From: an uncultured Methylomirabilota bacterium
GTDB lineage: Bacteria > Methylomirabilota > Methylomirabilia > Methylomirabilales > 2-02-FULL-66-22
Direction: 5' to 3'
DNA: 64,000 bases
NCBI GenBank assembly: GCA_963845565.1
Contig: CAWJSJ010000002.1
Location: forward strand, 2,464,001-2,528,000
A program made the translations under genes and the position numbers. Shown here piece by piece: positions 16,755-26,752 of this stretch; position 1 is the stretch's first letter; the number at the start of each line of letters is the position of its first letter. The notes below the pieces were generated by a model. It made no database searches, was not told where the DNA came from, and saw nothing but the letters and a program-made list of their open reading frames with translations.

Positions 16755-17597
16755 TTACTCGAGCGTCAGCGAATAACCGACGTTGCAGAACGCCACGGCG
16801 TCGCCGAACTCGCGGGCGAGCTTGGCGCCGGCCTCGAGACCGGTGCAGTGCGAGAGGCCGAGGCGTCGAACCTGCCGTTCTCTGAGCGTGGCGATCGTCT
16901 GGTGAAGTTGCTCCGCGGGCGCAAATCCCAGGTGTGTGCCGCCGATGACGGTGTGGATCGGTTTTCCGGGAAGCCGGTCGCGCACGTGATCCAGCGTGTT
17001 GATGAGCCCGGAATGACAGCAGCCCAAAATGAGCGTCAGGCCGTCGGCGCCCTCCACGACCATGGAGAGATCGTCGCGAAACGGATCGCGCTCGACGGTA
17101 TCTCCGTGCGGGATAAAGAGACGATCATCGCCCGTCTCGTAACTGCTCCGGCGCGGGACCTCGCCGGTCAGGTGGACACCCGGAGCGATCTCGCGAAAGG
17201 CGGGTGCGAGGTCGAAGGTCGCCCCCATGCCTTCCAGGGCCTCCCGCTTGAAGGGCAACCCGGCATACTGCACCTTGCCGTTGGCCCGCTTCCCAAAGCG
17301 GTCCGCGAAGATGCCGGGGTGGCCGTACACCGGGATCGGCTTTCCGATGGCGCCCAGCGCGGCCACCAGGCCTCCGGTGTGGTCCTTGTGCCCGTGGCTG
17401 AGGACGATGGCGTCCGCCGTCCGCAGGTCCTTGCCCAGCCGTGCCGCGTTGTGGAGCAGGGCGGCCCCGGCGCCCGTATCGAAGAGAATGCGGCGATCCG
17501 GTCGTTCGAGGAACAGAGAGAACCCGTGTTCGCCGATCAGACCGTCCGATTTTCCGGGGACCGTGTTCTCGACCAGGATCGTGATCGTGGTGGACAT
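16755..17597 (-). CDS. MBL-fold metallo-hydrolase
   Basis: EHGFS, LFDTG, SHGHKDHTGG, GCCHSG, GGTHL, HCTG. Confidence 0.92.
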   Translation of the reverse strand: MSTTITILVENTVPGKSDGLIGEHGFSLFLERPDRRILFDTGAGAALLHNAARLGKDLRTADAIVLSHGHKDHTGGLVAALGAIGKPIPVYGHPGIFADRFGKRANGKVQYAGLPFKREALEGMGATFDLAPAFREIAPGVHLTGEVPRRSSYETGDDRLFIPHGDTVERDPFRDDLSMVVEGADGLTLILGCCHSGLINTLDHVRDRLPGKPIHTVIGGTHLGFAPAEQLHQTIATLRERQVRRLGLSHCTGLEAGAKLAREFGDAVAFCNVGYSLTLE

Positions 17598-17730: not shown

Positions 17731-18039
17731 TCAGGTGTCGCAGCACGCGGTCGGTGTGGCGACTTCGGCGGCCTGCTGCGCCCGGTAGAAATCAGCCAGG
17801 ATATTGCCGGGGTTGCACGGTTCGCAGCCGAGACAGGCGTGCGGACTCCGGATGTTCATGGCTTGCCGGACCTCGGGCAGGAGTCGCCCCTGGTCCGCAC
17901 TCGGAGGGAGGTCCTCCAGGGCCAGCCGAATCTCCATGAGCGCCCCCTGCAGACACTCGCACCCGGCACACTTTTCCTCGCGCAGGCGGGGCAAGATCGC
18001 GTTCCAGGTTGTCTCGATCAGGCGCAGGTTCGCCGCCAT
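17731..18039 (-). CDS. Cys-rich hypothetical protein
   Basis: CAGCEC...CLGCEPC...CCDT; RBS GGAGG; cotranscribed position after DUF2892. Confidence 0.75.
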   Translation of the reverse strand: MAANLRLIETTWNAILPRLREEKCAGCECLQGALMEIRLALEDLPPSADQGRLLPEVRQAMNIRSPHACLGCEPCNPGNILADFYRAQQAAEVATPTACCDT

Positions 18040-18056: not shown

Positions 18057-18254
18057 TCAGGAGCGCGCCTCGCGGACGCCGAGCTTGCGCAGGATGTCTT
18101 CCATCAGGCACCAGCGCGTCAACGCCGACTGGAACAGGTTCGCGCCGACGAACGCCGTGAAGAAGAGCCAGTACGGGCTGTGCAACTGGCTGAGCGCCAG
18201 GCTCGCCAGGACCAACGTGCCCGCAATCAATCGAATCCAGCGTTCGAGCGTCAT
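18057..18254 (-). CDS. DUF2892 (YgaP-like) membrane protein
   Basis: ERWIRLIAG...FVGANLFQSALTRWC. Confidence 0.9.
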   Translation of the reverse strand: MTLERWIRLIAGTLVLASLALSQLHSPYWLFFTAFVGANLFQSALTRWCLMEDILRKLGVREARS

Positions 18255-18283: not shown

Positions 18284-18436
18284 CTAGGGCTTCTTCTCTG
18301 GCGTGGGTTTCGCGTCCTCGGTGCTCGACGAGCACCCGGTGGCGACGCCTCAGGTGGGCAGCCCGGCCTTCCGCATGATGAACTGCAGCACCAGCCAGAT
18401 GCCGATGATCAGGACGATCGTTCCGATGGCTTCCAC
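18284..18436 (-). CDS. Putative 50-aa membrane selenoprotein (UGA at 18350-18352)
   Basis: RBS AAAGGAGG, GTG; MEAIGTIVLIIGIWLVLQFIMRKAGLPT-U-GVATGCSSSTEDAKPTPEKKP*; SECIS-like hairpin after the UGA. Confidence 0.75.
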
Positions 18437-18533
18437 GATACCCTCCTTTCGTCGAGAATGAAAAACTGACAGAGCTGCGATCGCAACCGGCCAACTGGGG
18501 AACTCGCGATGCCCGGTTGTTCCAATCTCGGTC

Positions 18534-21500
18534 CTATGTTGCCGCGCTGTGCGCGGCCTCGTGCCGCTTCTCCATGTAGTATAGCACCGGAACGGCCATC
18601 CGGCTCAGTAACGTCGAAGCGACCTCGCCGGCCATGAGCGAGATGGCCAGCCCCTGGAAGATCGGATCGAACAGGATCACGAAGGCGCCCACCACCACGG
18701 CCGCGGCGGTGAGCAGCATGGGCCGGAACCGGACCGCCCCGGCGTCCACGACCGCCTCTTCCAAGGGCATCCCCTGCGCGATGCGGAGTTCGATGAAGTC
18801 CACCAGGATGATGGAGTTCCGCACGATGATGCCCGCCCCGGCAATGAACCCGATCATGGACGTGGCCGTGAAAAAGGCCCCCATCAGGCCGTGGGCCGGC
18901 AGGATCCCGACCAGCGTCAAGGGGATCGGCGCCATGATGGTGAGCGGGGTGACGAAATTGCGAAACCAGCCGACCACCAGGACGTAGATCAGGACGAGGA
19001 CGGCGGCGAAGGCGATCCCCAGGTCGCGAAAGACCTCGATGGTGATGTGCCACTCGCCGTCCCACTTCATGCTCAGCGTGTCGGTGCGGAACGGCTGCTC
19101 GGACGAGTAGCGGGTCAGGCGGTACCCTTCGGGGAGCCGCATGGCGTCCAGGGCGCGGTTCATCTGGAAGATGGCGTACACCGGGCTCTCTTCCGCGCCC
19201 GCCACGTCACCGGTCACGTACACCACGCGCTTCATGTTCTTCCGGTAAATGTTGTGCCCTTCGGGGGTTTCCTCGAGCCGGACGATCTCGCGCAGGGGCA
19301 CCAGCCGACCGCCGTTGCCGATGACGTTGATCTCGGTGAGGGAGGTGGCACCGGACCGCTCCTCGCGGGGCAGGCGCAGGAGGATTGGGACATCCTCCTT
19401 CTCTTTCGCGAGGTGGACCAGGCCGATCTCCGTTCCCCCGACAGCCATCCGCAGGGTCTGGACCACCTGCTCGACGGTGACGCCATTTAGCGCCGCCTTC
19501 TCCCGATCCACCACGAAGCGGACGCGGGGCTGCGGATCCTCCATATACCAGTCCACGTCCACCACGCCGGGCGTCTTGGTAAAGACGGTCTTGATGTCTC
19601 GCGCGACCGCGATCTGACGGTTGTAGTCCGGCCCGTACACCTCGGCCACCAAGGTCTGCAGGACCGGCGGGCCCGGGGGGACCTCCGCCACCTTGGCGCG
19701 AGCGCCATACCGCTCGGCGATCGCTTGAATCCCGGGACGAACGCGCTTGGCGATGTCGTGGCTCTGGGTGCGGCGCTCGTCCTTGGGCAAGAGGTTCACC
19801 TGCAGGTCGGCCTGGTGTGGGGCCTGTCGCAGGAAGTAGTGGCGGACCAGACCGTTGAAATTGTACGGCGAGGCGGAGCCGACGTACATCTGGTAGTCCG
19901 TCACCTCGGGCACCGTCGCCACGTATTGTCCGATCTCTCGCGTGACGCGCGCTGTCTGTTCCAGGGTGGTGCCCTCGGGTAGGTCCACGATGACCTGGAA
20001 CTCGCTCTTGTTGTCGAAGGGGAGCATCTTGACGTGCACCAGCCCAAAATAGACCAGCGACGCGGCGGCCAGCAGCAGCCCGGCGACGCCCCCCAGAAAG
20101 GCCCAGCGTTTCCAGACGGAGCGGATCAGTGGCGTCATCATGGCGCGGTAGAGCCGGGTGGTCCAATCCTCGTGCCCCTCGGTGTGTGCCGCGGTCTTCT
20201 CCCCTTTCAGCATCCGGTAGGCCGCCCACGGGGAGATGATGAAGGCGATGAAGAGCGAGAAGAGCATCGCCACGGAGGCGCCGACCGGGATGGGGCGCAT
20301 GTAGGGGCCCATCAGGCCGCCGACGAATGCCATGGGCAGGATGGCGGCGATGACGCCCCAGGTGGCCAGGATGGTGGGGTTTCCAACCTCCGCCACCGCC
20401 TCGACCGCCACCCGGACGAGCGGCCGCCCGTGATTCTCCGGCAGGTGGAAATGGCGCGAGATGTTCTCAACCACCACGATGGCATCGTCCACCAGAATCC
20501 CGATGGAGAAGATCAGGGCGAAGAGCGTGACGCGGTTCAGTGTGTATCCGTACAGGTAATAGAGCAGGAGCGTGAGGGCCAGCGTGACCGGCACGGCCAA
20601 CAAGACCACGACGGCGGAACGCCAGCCCAGGAACACGGCAATCAGGATGGCTACCGAGACCGTCGCCAGGATGAGGTGCTTCAGCAGTTCGTTGGATTTC
20701 TCCTGGGCTGTCTCGCCGTAGTTTCGCGTGATCGACACCTGGACATCGTGGGGAATCAGGACGCCCTTCAGCGACTCGACTTTTTCGACGACCTTGTCGG
20801 CGATGACGATGGCATTCGTGCCCTTCCGCTTGGCCACCGAGATGGTGACGGCCGGGTAGTCCTGGCCGACCGGCCGGGAACCCAACCCCTGGGCTATGTG
20901 GCCCTGCGCGGCTGCGGTGTGGGCCGCCGCGCCTACGCCGAAGAAGACGTACGAGCGCGGCTCCTCCGGCCCATCCACGATGCGGGCCACATCCCGAAGG
21001 TACACCGGTCGCCCGTCCGCGGCCCCGACGACCACCCGGCCCACGTCCTCTGCTCGCTCCAGGAATCGGGCGGCGTCCACGAGGATCTCGCGGTTGTCGC
21101 TGCTCACGCTGCCGGCACGCAGCTCTCGGTTGGTCGCGGTGAGGGCCCCCGCCACGGCCGCCGGCGCCAGTCGGTAGGCCGCCAGGCGCGCCGGGTCGAG
21201 GAGGACTCGCACCTGTCGTCGCTCGCCGCCCAGCAGTCGGGTCTCGGAGACGTCGGGGATGTCCTTGATCTGATCGTCGAGCTGGGCCGCGACCCGCCGC
21301 AACGTGTACCCGTCCACGCGGTCGCTCCACAGGGTAATGGCGAGGATGGGCACGTCGTCGATGGAGCGAGGCTTGATGAGGGGCGTCGAGGCCCCCGGCG
21401 GGATGAGGTCGAAATTGGCGTACATCTTGTTGTAGAGCTTGACGATGCTCTTCTCTTCATCCTCGCCTACCTTGAAACGGACGACGGCGAAGCTCTGGCC

Positions 21501-21830
21501 CGGGCTGCTGGTGGAGTAGACGTACTCCACGCCTGGGATCTCCATCAGCTTCTTCTCCATCGGGATGGTGACGCGCTGTTCGACCTCTTGGGCGCTCGCC
21601 CCCGGCATCTGGACGAACACGTCCATCATCGGAACGATGATCTGCGGCTCTTCCTCGCGCGGCGTGGCCACGATCGCGAAGAGGCCCAGCAAGAGCGACG
21701 CCACCACCAGGAGCGGGGTCAGGCGCGAGTCGATGAACGTCCGCGCCATGTGGCCGGCCAGGCCCAGCGGTCCGGTGTACGGTTCAGATTCTGGCGGTGT
21801 TAGTGTGTCCGGTTGTTGGTGAGTCATCAC
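18534..21830 (-). CDS. RND efflux permease (AcrB/CusA superfamily)
   Basis: [42 protein letters not shown]. Confidence 0.96.
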
Positions 21831-21930: not shown

Positions 21931-23127
21931 TTATCGTTGAATGCGGGCGCCGTCGGTCACGCGCTCGACGCCACTGGTAATCACCTGCTCTCCGCTGGTG
22001 AGGCCCGAGAGAACTTCGATCCCGCCTGAATGCATCGCACCCGTCCGGATCAGACGGAAGCGGGCGATGCCGTCCTGGCCGACGACGTAGACGCCCTGGA
22101 GCTGGCCGCGCTCGACCACGGCCTGGCGCGCGACCTGGATGGCCTGCCGCCGGCCTGCGGGAATCCAGGCCCGGCCAAAGAGGCCGGAACGGAGTTGCGG
22201 GGAGGCGGGGAGGTCGAGTCGCACCAGGGTCGTACGGGTGGCCTGGTCGGCGGTGGGGACGATCTCGCTGACGGGGGCGGCACCGGAGAAGCCCGCGCCC
22301 TCTACCGCCACCTGTAGGGATTGACCGCGCTTGAGGCCGGCAATCTGGGAGTCGGGGACCACCGCTTCTAGCCAGTAGCGCCGGTTATCCTCCAGCGTGA
22401 GCAAAGGGGCGCCGGGCGCTGCGAGTCCTCCCACCTCGGTGTGCTTGGTTGTCACGATCCCGGCAAACGGCGCGGCGATCTTGGCGTAGCCGCGCATGAC
22501 CTGGGTGCCGGCGATCTCGGTCCGGGCGGTCTCGATTCTGGCCAGGACCTGCGCGCGTTTCGACTGGATCGCCTGGCCCTCGGCGATGGCGCGATCCACG
22601 GCCGCCGCCGCCGCTTTTTGCTGCGCGGCCACCTGGTCGTACTCTTGAGGGGCCACGGACTTGCGATCCAGCAACCGCTGATACCGGGCCAGGGTGGAGA
22701 CGGCGAGATCCCGTTGGGCCTCCGCCGCGGCCTGGCCGGCGGCCGCGGCCGCGATCCCGCGATCCACCTCGGCCATGGCCGCCTCCGCTTCGCGGAGCCC
22801 GGCCTCGGCGCGTCGCGTCTGGGCGGCGATGTCCTGGTCGTCCAACTCGATGAGGAGTTGGCCGGCTTCCACCACGCTGCCCTCGCGGACATGTACGGCG
22901 ACGATCCGCCCCACGATCTTGCTGGAGAGGGTCGTGACGGTCCGGGACCTGACGGTGCCCGTCACCTCGGCCAGGTCATCGAGGTCGGTCGCAGTCGCGG
23001 CGCCGACGGTCACGTCACGAACGACCGGTGGCTCCGCCGCCTTGGGCGGGTGCGCGGAATCCTTTCCGCAGGCGGCCAGGGATAAGGCAATCAGGGCCAA
23101 AGCAAATGCGCGCCGTGAGATGGACAT
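21931..23127 (-). CDS. RND periplasmic adaptor (lipoprotein)
   Basis: LAAC lipobox, VHVREGSVVEAGQLL, IAAPFAGIV. Confidence 0.94.
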   Translation of the reverse strand: MSISRRAFALALIALSLAACGKDSAHPPKAAEPPVVRDVTVGAATATDLDDLAEVTGTVRSRTVTTLSSKIVGRIVAVHVREGSVVEAGQLLIELDDQDIAAQTRRAEAGLREAEAAMAEVDRGIAAAAAGQAAAEAQRDLAVSTLARYQRLLDRKSVAPQEYDQVAAQQKAAAAAVDRAIAEGQAIQSKRAQVLARIETARTEIAGTQVMRGYAKIAAPFAGIVTTKHTEVGGLAAPGAPLLTLEDNRRYWLEAVVPDSQIAGLKRGQSLQVAVEGAGFSGAAPVSEIVPTADQATRTTLVRLDLPASPQLRSGLFGRAWIPAGRRQAIQVARQAVVERGQLQGVYVVGQDGIARFRLIRTGAMHSGGIEVLSGLTSGEQVITSGVERVTDGARIQR

Positions 23128-23130
23128 GGC

Positions 23131-24510
23131 TCAGAACCTCGCGCGGTCGAGTTGGCCCAGGCTGAGATCGAGCCGAGCCTGACTCACCGTGGCGTCGTAT
23201 AGCGTCCGGGTCAGGTTGGTGCGGGACGCCGTCAGGGCCGTCTCGCTGTCCAGCAGTTCGACGATGGTCGTGAGTCCGGCGTCGTACCGGTCCTGCACGA
23301 TGCGCAGGCTTTCCTCTGCCTGGCTGACCGCCTCCCGGGCCACCGTGATCCGCTCCCGCGCAGTCTGATGGGCCAGGAACGCATCGTGGACCTCCAGGCC
23401 GATGGCATTACCGAGGCGCTCGCGCTGGGCCATGGCCCGCTGGTGGTACGCCTGCGCCTCGACGATCCGGGCGCGATCCGCTCCGCCGTTGAAGAGGTTC
23501 AGGTTGAGGATGACGCCGACCGACCAGCTATCCTGACCGCTCCCGGCGAACCGGTTGTTATTGATCTCGTAGTTCCCCATGAGGTGCATGGATGGGAGGA
23601 GGGCCCCCTTGGTGCGGAGGACGTCCTTCTCCAGTCGCTGGACCTCCAGGTCCATCTGCCGGTAGTCCGGCCGATGGGCGCGGGCCACGTCGCCGAGCCC
23701 TTCCAGGCGGTCGTGCGTGACGGGCGGAATCTCCAGGCCGCCTGCGATCTGGTGTGGCTGCTCCAGCGGAAGGCCCATCGCCTCGTTGAGCGCGACCCGG
23801 GACAACCGGACCTGATTGGCCGCCGCGATGGCCTCTTCCTGCAAGCGCGCCAGTCGGACGCGGGCGGCCAGCGCATCCGAGGCCACCACGACGCCGGCGT
23901 CGTAGCGTGCCTCGGCTGCGGCAAGGTTGGCCTTGGCGGTCCGGACGGCCGCCGCCACCGTCGTGTGCGCTTCCCGTGAAAGCAGAACGGCGGTGTAGGA
24001 CCGGATCACGCCGAAGATGACCTCCTGTTCGGCTCGGGCACGACCGAGTTCCGCCGCGTCCCGGCCGAGCTGGGCTTGCTGGAAACCCAGGATGGTCCGG
24101 CCCCCAAGGAAGAGCGGAATGGCGCCGCTCAGGTTGGTTCGCCAGTTGGTGATGGGGTCGGGGTGGTTCAGCTTGTCCACGGCGAAGTCGGCGGAGGTGA
24201 ACCGGCCCTGGTTCAGCAGGGAGCCGAAGGCGTACACGGGGTTGTCGCTCTGGATGACGCCTTCGGAGAAGTCCACCCGGGGGAGGAAGCCGGCCCGCGC
24301 CTGCTCGACGCCGGACGCGGCCGCCGCGGCATGATACTCCGCGACGCGGAGGGCCGGGTGCTTCTCAAGGGCGGTCTTCACGGCCTGCGTCAAAGTCAAC
24401 CCTTCCGCTGACGTGATCTCGATCGAGGCAGCAGCCGCGAGTCCGGTCGAAGCGGCGAGGGACAGGCAGATGCCCAACCAACCGAAGGCGACGATTCTTG
24501 AGAAGCTCAT
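23131..24510 (-). CDS. TolC family outer membrane protein
   Basis: LTLTQAVKTALEKHP, ARAGFLP, RYDAG repeats. Confidence 0.92.
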   Translation of the reverse strand: MSFSRIVAFGWLGICLSLAASTGLAAAASIEITSAEGLTLTQAVKTALEKHPALRVAEYHAAAAASGVEQARAGFLPRVDFSEGVIQSDNPVYAFGSLLNQGRFTSADFAVDKLNHPDPITNWRTNLSGAIPLFLGGRTILGFQQAQLGRDAAELGRARAEQEVIFGVIRSYTAVLLSREAHTTVAAAVRTAKANLAAAEARYDAGVVVASDALAARVRLARLQEEAIAAANQVRLSRVALNEAMGLPLEQPHQIAGGLEIPPVTHDRLEGLGDVARAHRPDYRQMDLEVQRLEKDVLRTKGALLPSMHLMGNYEINNNRFAGSGQDSWSVGVILNLNLFNGGADRARIVEAQAYHQRAMAQRERLGNAIGLEVHDAFLAHQTARERITVAREAVSQAEESLRIVQDRYDAGLTTIVELLDSETALTASRTNLTRTLYDATVSQARLDLSLGQLDRARF

Positions 24511-24626
24511 GATGGTCTCCGCGGGTGAGATCCCCGACACTACCCATTCGGTCCAGAACCGGCGGAAAGGGTTCATGGGAGCGAAAAGAAGGCGCAACAA
24601 GAGGGCAGGCGATCAACAAATCAAAG

Positions 24627-25042: not shown

Positions 25043-26752
25043 ATGAGCCGACAACGCGATTCTCAACCGACTCCCTTGGAGAATACCAGCCCTCCGCGTC
25101 GCGTGCTCATTGTCGGTGGCGTCGCAGGGGGTGCCTCGTGCGCCGCGCGCCTGCGGCGGCTGGACGAGTCCGTCGAGATCGTCGTGTTCGAGCGCGGCCC
25201 CTACGTCTCGTTCGCTAACTGTGGGCTGCCGTACTACGTCGGGAACGTCATTGCCGACGAGCGTGCCCTGCTGGTCGCGTCGCGCGAGATGTTTCGAACA
25301 CGCTTCAATGTCGACGTGCAGACGGAAACGGAAGTCACCGGCATCGACCGCCGCGCCTGCACGATTACGGTGCGCGACGGCCGCACCGGCACCAGCCGGA
25401 CGGAACGCTACGACGCGCTGGTGCTGTCCCCGGGCGCGGCGCCGATCCGTCCGCCGCTCCCTGGCGTGGACCTTCCCGGCGTCTTCGCGGTGCGCACCAT
25501 CCCCGACTCCCGCCGGATCCGGTCCTGGATCACCGAGCGCCACGCCACGAGCGCGGTCGTCGTCGGGGGCGGTTTCATCGGCTTGGAGATGGTCGAGAAC
25601 CTGCACCAGCGCGAACTGGCCGTGACCGTGCTGGAGAAACTCCCGCAGCTGATGCCCCCGCTCGATCCGGAGATGGCGCTGCCGCTCAGGGAGCATCTGG
25701 TCGCCAAGGGGGTGAAGCTCCAGCTGGGCGACGGACTCGCGAGCATTGAGACGCGGGATGGGGGCGGGTTGGTCGTCGTCGCCGAGAGCGGCGCGCGGTT
25801 GCCCGCAGATCTTGTCATTCTCGCCATCGGCGTGCGGCCCGAGACCGCGCTGGCCAAGGCGGCCGGCCTTGACCTCGGGCCGCGCGGCGGCATTGTCGTC
25901 GATGCGCAGATGCGGACGGCCGATCCGCACATCTGGGCCGTGGGCGATGCTGTCGAAGTGCCCGATGTGGTCACGGGTCAAGAGACCGTGCTGCCCCTGG
26001 CCGGACCGGCCAATCGTCAGGGTCGTGTGGCCGCCGAGGCGATCGCCGGGCGGGCGACGAAGTTCCGCGGGGTCCAGGCCACGGCAGTCGTGGGAGTCCT
26101 GGGCCTGACCGCCGCCTCGACCGGGGCCAGCGAGAAGGGCCTCCGACGGGCCGGCATCACGAATTTCGAAAAAGTATATCTGCATCCGGGACATCACGCG
26201 GGCTATTACCCCGGCGCGCGCCCTATTCATCTCAAGCTCCTGTTCTCGGTGCCGGACGGCCGCATTCTTGGTGCGCAAGCGGTGGGGCTCGAGGGCGTGG
26301 AGAAACGCATCGATGTCATCGCGACCGCGATTCAGTTCCGCGGCACGGTACACGATCTCGCCGAGGCCGAATTGTGTTATGCACCGCAGTACGGGGCTGC
26401 GAAAGATCCGGTGAACCTCGCCGGGATGCTTGCGGTAAATGTGCTGACAGGCGACATGCCGGTGGCTGACTGGTCGGCGCTTGCCGGCACCGATGGGGTA
26501 GTGCTCGACGTGCGCGAACCCGACGAGTTCGCCGCCGGGCACATCCCCCACGCGATCAACCTGCCGCTCTCCCAGTTGCGCGCCCGGTGCGGCGAGCTGC
26601 CCCGGGATCGCGACCTCTGGATCTGTTGTGTCGTGGGACAGCGGGCGTACTACGCGACGCGTTTCTTGGCGCAGCGCGGATATCGGGCACGGAACTTGTC
26701 TGGAGGCTATACGACGTACCTGGCACTCAAGACTTCCGGCCTGGTGCCCTGA
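25043..26752 (+). CDS. CoA-disulfide/persulfide reductase with C-terminal rhodanese domain (CoADR-RHD/Npsr-like)
   Basis: GGVAGG, SFANCGLPY, GGGFIGLE, YAPQY, LDVREPDEF...CCVVGQRAY. Confidence 0.93.
   Translation: MSRQRDSQPTPLENTSPPRRVLIVGGVAGGASCAARLRRLDESVEIVVFERGPYVSFANCGLPYYVGNVIADERALLVASREMFRTRFNVDVQTETEVTGIDRRACTITVRDGRTGTSRTERYDALVLSPGAAPIRPPLPGVDLPGVFAVRTIPDSRRIRSWITERHATSAVVVGGGFIGLEMVENLHQRELAVTVLEKLPQLMPPLDPEMALPLREHLVAKGVKLQLGDGLASIETRDGGGLVVVAESGARLPADLVILAIGVRPETALAKAAGLDLGPRGGIVVDAQMRTADPHIWAVGDAVEVPDVVTGQETVLPLAGPANRQGRVAAEAIAGRATKFRGVQATAVVGVLGLTAASTGASEKGLRRAGITNFEKVYLHPGHHAGYYPGARPIHLKLLFSVPDGRILGAQAVGLEGVEKRIDVIATAIQFRGTVHDLAEAELCYAPQYGAAKDPVNLAGMLAVNVLTGDMPVADWSALAGTDGVVLDVREPDEFAAGHIPHAINLPLSQLRARCGELPRDRDLWICCVVGQRAYYATRFLAQRGYRARNLSGGYTTYLALKTSGLVP

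Follow-up and report, generated by a model that had tools for sequence, protein, structure and literature searches.

A 50-residue membrane selenopeptide predicted in an uncultured Methylomirabilota bacterium and its apparently uncatalogued family

The eukaryotic proteins SELENOK and SELENOS are small single-pass membrane selenoproteins in which selenocysteine (Sec, U) is located near the C terminus, in a disordered cytoplasmic part, and the Sec insertion sequence (SECIS) is located in the 3′ untranslated region. We examined a bacterial gene whose predicted product resembles these proteins by analogy only, in its size, its single pass, and a Sec-bearing disordered part that would be cytoplasmic; the positions of Sec and of the SECIS in the eukaryotic proteins are points of difference. 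The gene occupies positions 18284 to 18436 on the minus strand of a 64,000-nucleotide stretch (the window) of contig CAWJSJ010000002.1 (positions 2,464,001 to 2,528,000 of the forward strand; assembly GCA_963845565.1) from an uncultured Methylomirabilota bacterium. Judged from sequence comparison, this locus is a genuine gene whose product is an inner-membrane selenoprotein of 50 residues, and its in-frame UGA is almost certainly decoded as Sec by means of the hairpin that follows it, with translation of the tail.

Several described bacterial proteins share features with this gene. The UxxC/CxxU redox selenoproteins (PMC13188914) are alike in having an in-frame UGA, a hairpin of the bacterial SECIS (bSECIS) type, Cys homologues, a nearby second Cys, and clustering with thiol-redox genes; unlike them, the window peptide has no thioredoxin fold, and none of those listed in the relevant part of that source is, by name or motif, a single-helix protein with a U-x4-C motif. 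AcrZ of Escherichia coli (49 amino acids; PMC7267776) has a similar size, a single helix, the same likely N-out orientation, and, in the host lineage of the window, the same proximity to an RND pump. It differs in that the window family has Sec/Cys-x4-Cys, shows no Pfam, NCBIfam, or PDB sequence match to AcrZ, and is mostly encoded away from RND genes. The YgaP-like transmembrane (TM)/DUF2892 proteins (PF11127; PMC4730233) are also small membrane proteins with a conserved Cys after a helix, and a faint helix-Gly-x-x-Cys likeness was observed; they have two helices, whereas the peptide has one and no PF11127 match. Homology of the peptide to the C-terminal half of YgaP was considered and rejected (HHalign probability, 14%).

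The gene had been proposed in a first-pass annotation made from the sequence alone, and all of the elements described there were found on the minus strand. A strong Shine-Dalgarno sequence, AAAGGAGG (18442..18449), is followed by a 5-nt spacer and a GTG start at 18436; Shine-Dalgarno-like motifs also precede the starts of homologues. The open reading frame (ORF), delimited by frame reading and homologue comparison, has a single TM helix, an R/K-rich interface segment, a U-x5-C motif formed by Sec29 and Cys35, and a charged, disordered tail. The hydrophobic helix spans residues 2 to 23 (18368..18433) in an AlphaFold model, in which the helix alone was confident (pTM, 0.37), and Kyte-Doolittle values with 19-residue windows reached 2.5. 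The segment RKAGLPT is followed by the TGA codon (18350..18352), past which the frame reads GVATGCSSSTEDAKPTPEKKP over 21 more codons up to a TAG ending at 18284, and 29 nt separate this stop codon from the ATG (18254) of a YgaP-like gene.

Homologues were compared at the position of the UGA codon. The gene was present in 15 of 20 same-genus genomes, and each copy contained one internal TGA. Among 71 matches listed in a search of the host phylum, the stronger 51 loci were examined and ∼20 weak, partial ones were left out. All 51 loci had TGA at the codon and none had TAA or TAG; 34 of them were obtained with a profile which covered only the part before the codon and which also picked up members in two further families belonging to the class. 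The next in-frame stop codon in the same 51 loci was TGA in 31, TAG in 16, and TAA in 4. A GTDB-wide scan detected at least 558 loci, and the best 80 of these, comprising 81 copies, had 79 TGA and 2 TGC codons and no TAA or TAG. The titles of these 80 records were mostly those of Acidobacteriota, with some Binatia and delta proteobacteria, although titles of metagenome-assembled genomes (MAGs) can mislead: one locus titled Verrucomicrobiia (L120, genome G270) grouped with the Acidobacteriota sample. Among the best 80 of 342 matches in a metagenome scan using a Cys-form alignment, 43 TGA and 32 TGC or TGT codons were detected, 5 matches could not be parsed, and TAA and TAG were again absent.

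Alternatively, the gene could stop at the UGA and encode a 28-residue peptide, the hairpin being a terminator, an RNA-stability element, or a palindromic operator. TGA is the commonest stop codon of long ORFs in the host genome (1093 of 1864), and 96 of the top 120 matches in protein databases, which mostly store the family as a stub of 28 to 31 residues, end at this codon. Such a peptide is difficult to reconcile with the absence of TAA and TAG from every parsed locus and with the Cys homologues, which read on with the same x4-C. Of the remaining database matches, 20 had Cys, 3 had Trp, and 1 had Arg at the Sec position, and Trp was also present in two further matches; our guess is that the Trp and Arg residues reflect alternative-code gene calls. 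One Cys form bears a Planctomycetota label. In another database protein (P0003), the Sec codon and spacer are gone and the CSSST tail is still in frame, a deletion that is either natural or an assembly error.

The relationship between the Sec and Cys forms was also apparent in a comparison of profiles. When the window subfamily, with X at the UGA, was aligned with the Cys subfamily, an HHalign probability of 94% (E = 1e-7) was obtained and X was aligned with Cys. At least five switches between Sec and Cys were forced on a weakly resolved tree of 109 rows and 39 columns. In the host genus, a Cys codon was located 12 or 15 nt past the UGA and in frame in 17/17 loci, and the tail stop codon overlapped the next start codon in 12/17 loci, the downstream genes being of three kinds (YgaP-like, OsmC-like, and small Cys-rich); this coupling of tail stops to downstream starts argues against termination at the UGA. 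Overlaps across the whole family (65/188 TGA forms) were near chance and were dropped as evidence, while the host-genus cases with identified genes were kept. Contigs of relatives in four RNA runs cover this stretch, and two of them span the UGA and the hairpin (X5 record 19 and X6 record 29); these were not used as evidence of transcription since contigs cannot show it.

The first-pass annotation had also described a two-tier stem after the UGA. The putative SECIS (18312..18348) was assigned from the fold and from homologue hairpins and comprises a lower stem, a 7-bp upper stem, and a GUC loop. The upper stem, GGUGCUC-[GUC]-GAGCACC (18336-18330 paired with 18326-18320; loop, 18329-18327), was part of the minimum-energy fold; its loop G is 20 nt past the UGA, and the lower stem lies beneath. 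The bSECIS model, as given in part of PMC13188914, has a loop of 3 to 9 nt, an upper stem of 4 to 16 bp, a G in the first two loop positions, a spacing of 16 to 37 nt, and an energy of −7.5 kcal/mol or lower. The window hairpin agrees with this model, with a 3-nt loop, 7 bp, G in first position, 20-nt spacing, and −21 kcal/mol for the whole hairpin. Comparison with shuffled sequences gave z values of about −2.0 to −2.2 at three lengths and −0.8 for a 95-nt stretch. The window hairpin alone is modestly unusual and would not decide in favor of Sec, and the case rests on the homologues.

Among the homologues, a G-loop hairpin of −7.5 kcal/mol or lower was detected in 136/189 distinct TGA forms versus 9/28 Cys forms and in control sets was present after 13/181 true stop codons and in 17/189 shuffles. 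For the 102 TGA forms in which the loop had a fixed offset of 23 nt, the stem cells were paired in 81.5% of cases versus 19.5 to 45% for slid partners, compensatory swaps (A-U, G-C, and C-G) were observed at one and the same stem pair, and the loop-initial G was present in 98/102. Two Cys forms in the 23-nt-offset set retained the stem with one extra broken pair, which is what a recent loss of Sec would lead one to expect. SECIS-like stems were seen in the Cys forms L223-L225, L097, and L100, which suggests a recent change from Sec to Cys. In the host genus, the upper stem forms a perfect palindrome at the DNA level, as would suit an operator; the hairpin was not regarded as one because the stem sequence varies among homologues, with pairing and the loop G being retained and the hairpin decaying in Cys forms. 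No U-tract terminator was called at the window hairpin.

The presence of machinery for Sec incorporation was then considered. The host genome has a tRNA-Sec, a selA gene above the cut-off, and a selD gene with its own in-frame TGA; the hairpin of the latter, which has a 7-bp stem and a G-first triloop 17 nt past the UGA, is of the same build as that of the window peptide. Of 251 Acidobacteriota genomes sampled evenly, a tally which includes three unpublished ones (G323, G348, and G446), 76 matched the family and 72 of these showed TGA within the match. The selA gene was detected in 71/72 of these TGA-form genomes versus 125/179 of the others. Among GTDB genomes with TGA forms, selA was present in 42 of the 48 searched (from 50 of the best 80 loci), and it was present in 1/2 of those with Cys forms. 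Within the host phylum, selA was near universal (215/251) and so did not discriminate. These results indicated that the UGA is almost certainly a Sec codon and that a 28-residue product, which also fits poorly with the selA co-occurrence, is very improbable. The first-pass proposal of a membrane peptide with one helix, Sec recoding, and a bacterial SECIS was thus supported by homologue codons and hairpins, and none of the three outcomes that it had named as refuting was observed: no homologue had TAA or TAG, Cys homologues exist, and Sec machinery is present in the genome.

Across the family, the conserved core consists of the helix, W[VI]LPRxG[VI]xT, U or C, x4, and C, and the remaining tail is variable and charged. 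The U-x5-C spacing proposed in the first-pass annotation therefore describes the window peptide but not the family, as the second Cys follows x4 in 151 of 189 TGA forms and x5 in 24. In the window, this residue (Cys35; TGC, 18332..18334) is encoded within the SECIS stem and is likely to be the resolving cysteine. The second Cys was present in 28/28 Cys forms, most of which lack a strong SECIS; because the constraint imposed by the SECIS is largely gone in these forms, the second Cys is kept for the protein. A further Cys at +10 was observed in 11/28 Cys forms. The net charge was greater on the C-terminal side of the helix in 192/216 homologues, and this bias, by the positive-inside rule, suggests an N-out/C-in topology with a cytoplasmic U-x-C pair.

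The window gene lies in an efflux cluster, whose genes are likewise on the minus strand. An RND permease gene (18534..21830; PF00873), which scored under every named NCBIfam cut-off, is located 97 nt upstream and is preceded by genes for an RND periplasmic adaptor (21931..23127; TIGR01730 above cut-off) and an outer-membrane efflux protein (23131..24600 as listed; PF02321), the true start of which is probably later than listed. Downstream is the gene for the YgaP-like/DUF2892 protein (18060..18254; PF11127), a membrane protein of two helices in which a Trp-Cys pair is conserved; W48 and C49 were invariant in the YgaP-like neighbours (n = 16). A divergent gene on the plus strand (25043..26752) encodes a CoA-disulfide-reductase-like flavoprotein (TIGR03385, 461 bits, below the 579 cut-off), a probable source of reductant for the cluster, and a protein like it, encoded next to a different member of the family, has a rhodanese domain. 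No regulator gene was seen between the efflux operon and this flavoprotein gene. Behind the YgaP-like gene, a small Cys-rich protein with CxxCxC and CxxCxxC (17731-18039, minus strand; in 8/17 same-genus loci) weakly matched the N-terminal region of an MtrA model (E = 8e-6, far under the cut-off), and an MBL-fold hydrolase (16755-17597, minus strand) was conserved downstream in 15/17 same-genus loci.

This arrangement had led to the proposal of a pump accessory similar to AcrZ, that is, a subunit that would bind and tune the RND permease with Sec as a redox switch. The gene is immediately behind the permease gene in 14/17 host-genus loci, and the size and probable N-out orientation of the peptide are as in AcrZ (PMC7267776). 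Across the family the association was not sustained: in 217 distinct loci of differing length, an RND permease of the window type was present within 1.5 kb in 28 (46 when counted anywhere in the fetched DNA, many loci being short) and a YgaP-like protein in 66. Moreover, the peptide matched no Pfam or NCBIfam model, and the conserved feature of the family is the U/C-x4-C pair, which is retained beside thioredoxin-type partners. A role as an AcrZ-like subunit is consequently a distinctly unlikely one.

The other neighbours within 1.5 kb in the 217 loci (rhodanese was left out of the counts as it overlaps YgaP) were DUF302 in 35, TIGR02187 in 26, ArsR in 22, OsmC in 16, Usp in 13, TlpA-like in 11, CoA-disulfide reductase in 10, and SQR, TauE, SoxB-like, and P-type ATPase proteins in 4 each. 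DUF302 was present within 1.5 kb in 26/76 Acidobacteriota loci, where it was often the nearest conserved neighbour (e.g., L158:731-1144), and is a possible partner of the peptide as judged from gene order. The TIGR02187 protein disulfide oxidoreductase was encoded within 1.5 kb in 26/34 class-level relatives. Directly upstream of the peptide gene in L061-L096, its gene had an in-frame TGA in a U-x-x-C motif in 8/9 loci inspected, so that these are two selenoprotein genes in tandem. In four clusters (P0158, P0159, P0161, and P0162), a Cys form was fused to the N-terminal side of a complete WCGPC thioredoxin; the predicted product is a thioredoxin anchored in the membrane and carrying an additional C-x4-C.

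The first-pass suggestion of a redox or chalcogen-carrying role stands as the best account of the peptide, in view of the thioredoxin fusions and thiol-gene neighbours. Because a YgaP/DUF2892 protein is the commonest neighbour and Cys forms are fused to thioredoxin, we favour, with somewhat better than even confidence, a membrane-anchored selenol/thiol relay that would be recycled by thioredoxin-type proteins and would act in sulfur or disulfide stress. YgaP of E. coli is a sulfurtransferase of the membrane (PMC4730233), and H2S elicits a response from an RND/SQR operon and from a DUF2892 gene in Azospira (PMC5358917). In the proposed mechanism, the helix would anchor the peptide N-out and place the U-x4/5-C pair just inside the cytoplasmic membrane face. 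The selenolate would attack a membrane partner or a small molecule at a disulfide, persulfide, or polysulfide; the second Cys would then either release the sulfur or resolve the adduct by forming an intramolecular Se-S bond, and a thioredoxin-fold protein or CoA-disulfide reductase would re-reduce the peptide. In the window, the relay might serve a sulfur-stress export cluster consisting of the outer-membrane efflux protein, adaptor, and RND permease, the YgaP-like protein, and the divergent CoA-disulfide reductase, its most plausible exchange partner being the Cys that is conserved in the YgaP-like protein. A complex prediction for a natural Cys-form peptide and its adjacent YgaP-like protein (L210) gave a score of 0.01, which was counted neither for nor against this pairing.

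The same neighbourhoods could be read as those of a soft-metal or metalloid ligand, in which the Sec peptide would bind Cu, Hg, or As and pass ions to exporters. Heavy-metal P-type ATPases in 11 of 217 loci, multicopper oxidases in 3, and ArsR proteins in 27 point in this direction, as does the additional Cys at +10 in Cys forms, and most of the predicted transporter selenoproteins in the part of PMC13188914 that treats them were tied to metal resistance. Metal genes were, however, fewer than thiol/sulfur genes among the neighbours, the fusion partner is a thioredoxin, and the window RND permease fell under the CusA/CzcA cut-off (292 versus 701). A metal ligand is thus an unlikely alternative to the selenol/thiol relay, and the AcrZ-like subunit is less probable still.

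Several observations weigh against Sec decoding or the relay. The GTDB and metagenome sets were ranked partly on the tail, so TAA or TAG forms could rank lower, and related genomes are not independent, so that the tallies are overstated; the window subfamily is divergent and lies on a long branch. The host selB gene (G000:C4:5502-7391, outside the window and near the tRNA-Sec) has three single-base homopolymer insertions. As selB was above the cut-off in 5/5 same-genus genomes searched, these breaks are likely to be long-read sequencing errors. The selA gene was not found in 6/48 TGA-form MAGs, whose completeness was not stated, and the second Cys was missing in 14/189 TGA forms. With respect to the relay, a gene of the thiol/sulfur panel was present within 1.5 kb in only 38/76 GTDB TGA loci, a count with no random-locus control, and Usp, heavy-metal P-type ATPase, and copper-oxidase proteins were among the neighbours. 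The thioredoxin-fusion clusters are related and of the Cys form and perhaps represent one event, and in Azospira the rate of H2S oxidation was unchanged after deletion of the H2S-responsive genes (PMC5358917).

No named family was found for the peptide, and the first-pass annotation had likewise assigned it to none. The window form and 9 other Sec or Cys forms matched 0 families in NCBIfam 20.0, and the window form and 3 others had no match in Pfam. None of the 119 selenoprotein families in Table 1 of PMC13188914 is alike by name or motif, and nothing alike was found in the parts consulted of deep-Sep (PMC12013277), whose new families are within that table, or of BSepDB (PMC13326102). A literature search that included motif words gave no description, and one could be in Haft & Tolstoy 2025, in the study cited as reference 66 of PMC13188914, or in supplements. 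According to the passage that cites it, that groundwater study reported new candidates that had not been validated and counted 63 selenoprotein genes in one Methylomirabilota genome. Viral contigs contained no relative of the peptide, a single-sequence protein search from a distant member gave no candidate, and a PDB sequence search gave only E values of >1; one unnamed ESM Atlas cluster at 0.85 is a lead only. The recoding mechanism is already known, none of the bacterial selenoproteins compared has this architecture, and the family is widespread and apparently uncatalogued. There is about an even chance that it represents a class of microselenoproteins, each with a membrane anchor and U-x4-C, forming a general thioredoxin-coupled sulfur/selenium relay that would be plugged into YgaP/RND sulfur export, OsmC, protein disulfide oxidoreductase, and SQR modules.

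The bacterial selenoproteome thereby gains a large family that had been hidden, with at least 558 GTDB loci and a presence in ∼30% of the sampled Acidobacteriota. A peptide of 50 residues is fully synthesizable, which makes the chemistry of a membrane-surface Sec/Cys pair directly accessible, and the Sec and Cys versions found in nature, which have been interchanged several times, provide a ready-made comparison. A redox role is also hinted at for two uncharacterised kinds of protein that accompany the family, YgaP/DUF2892 and DUF302. If the general relay is true, these peptides would be among the commoner selenoproteins in soil and sediment bacteria.
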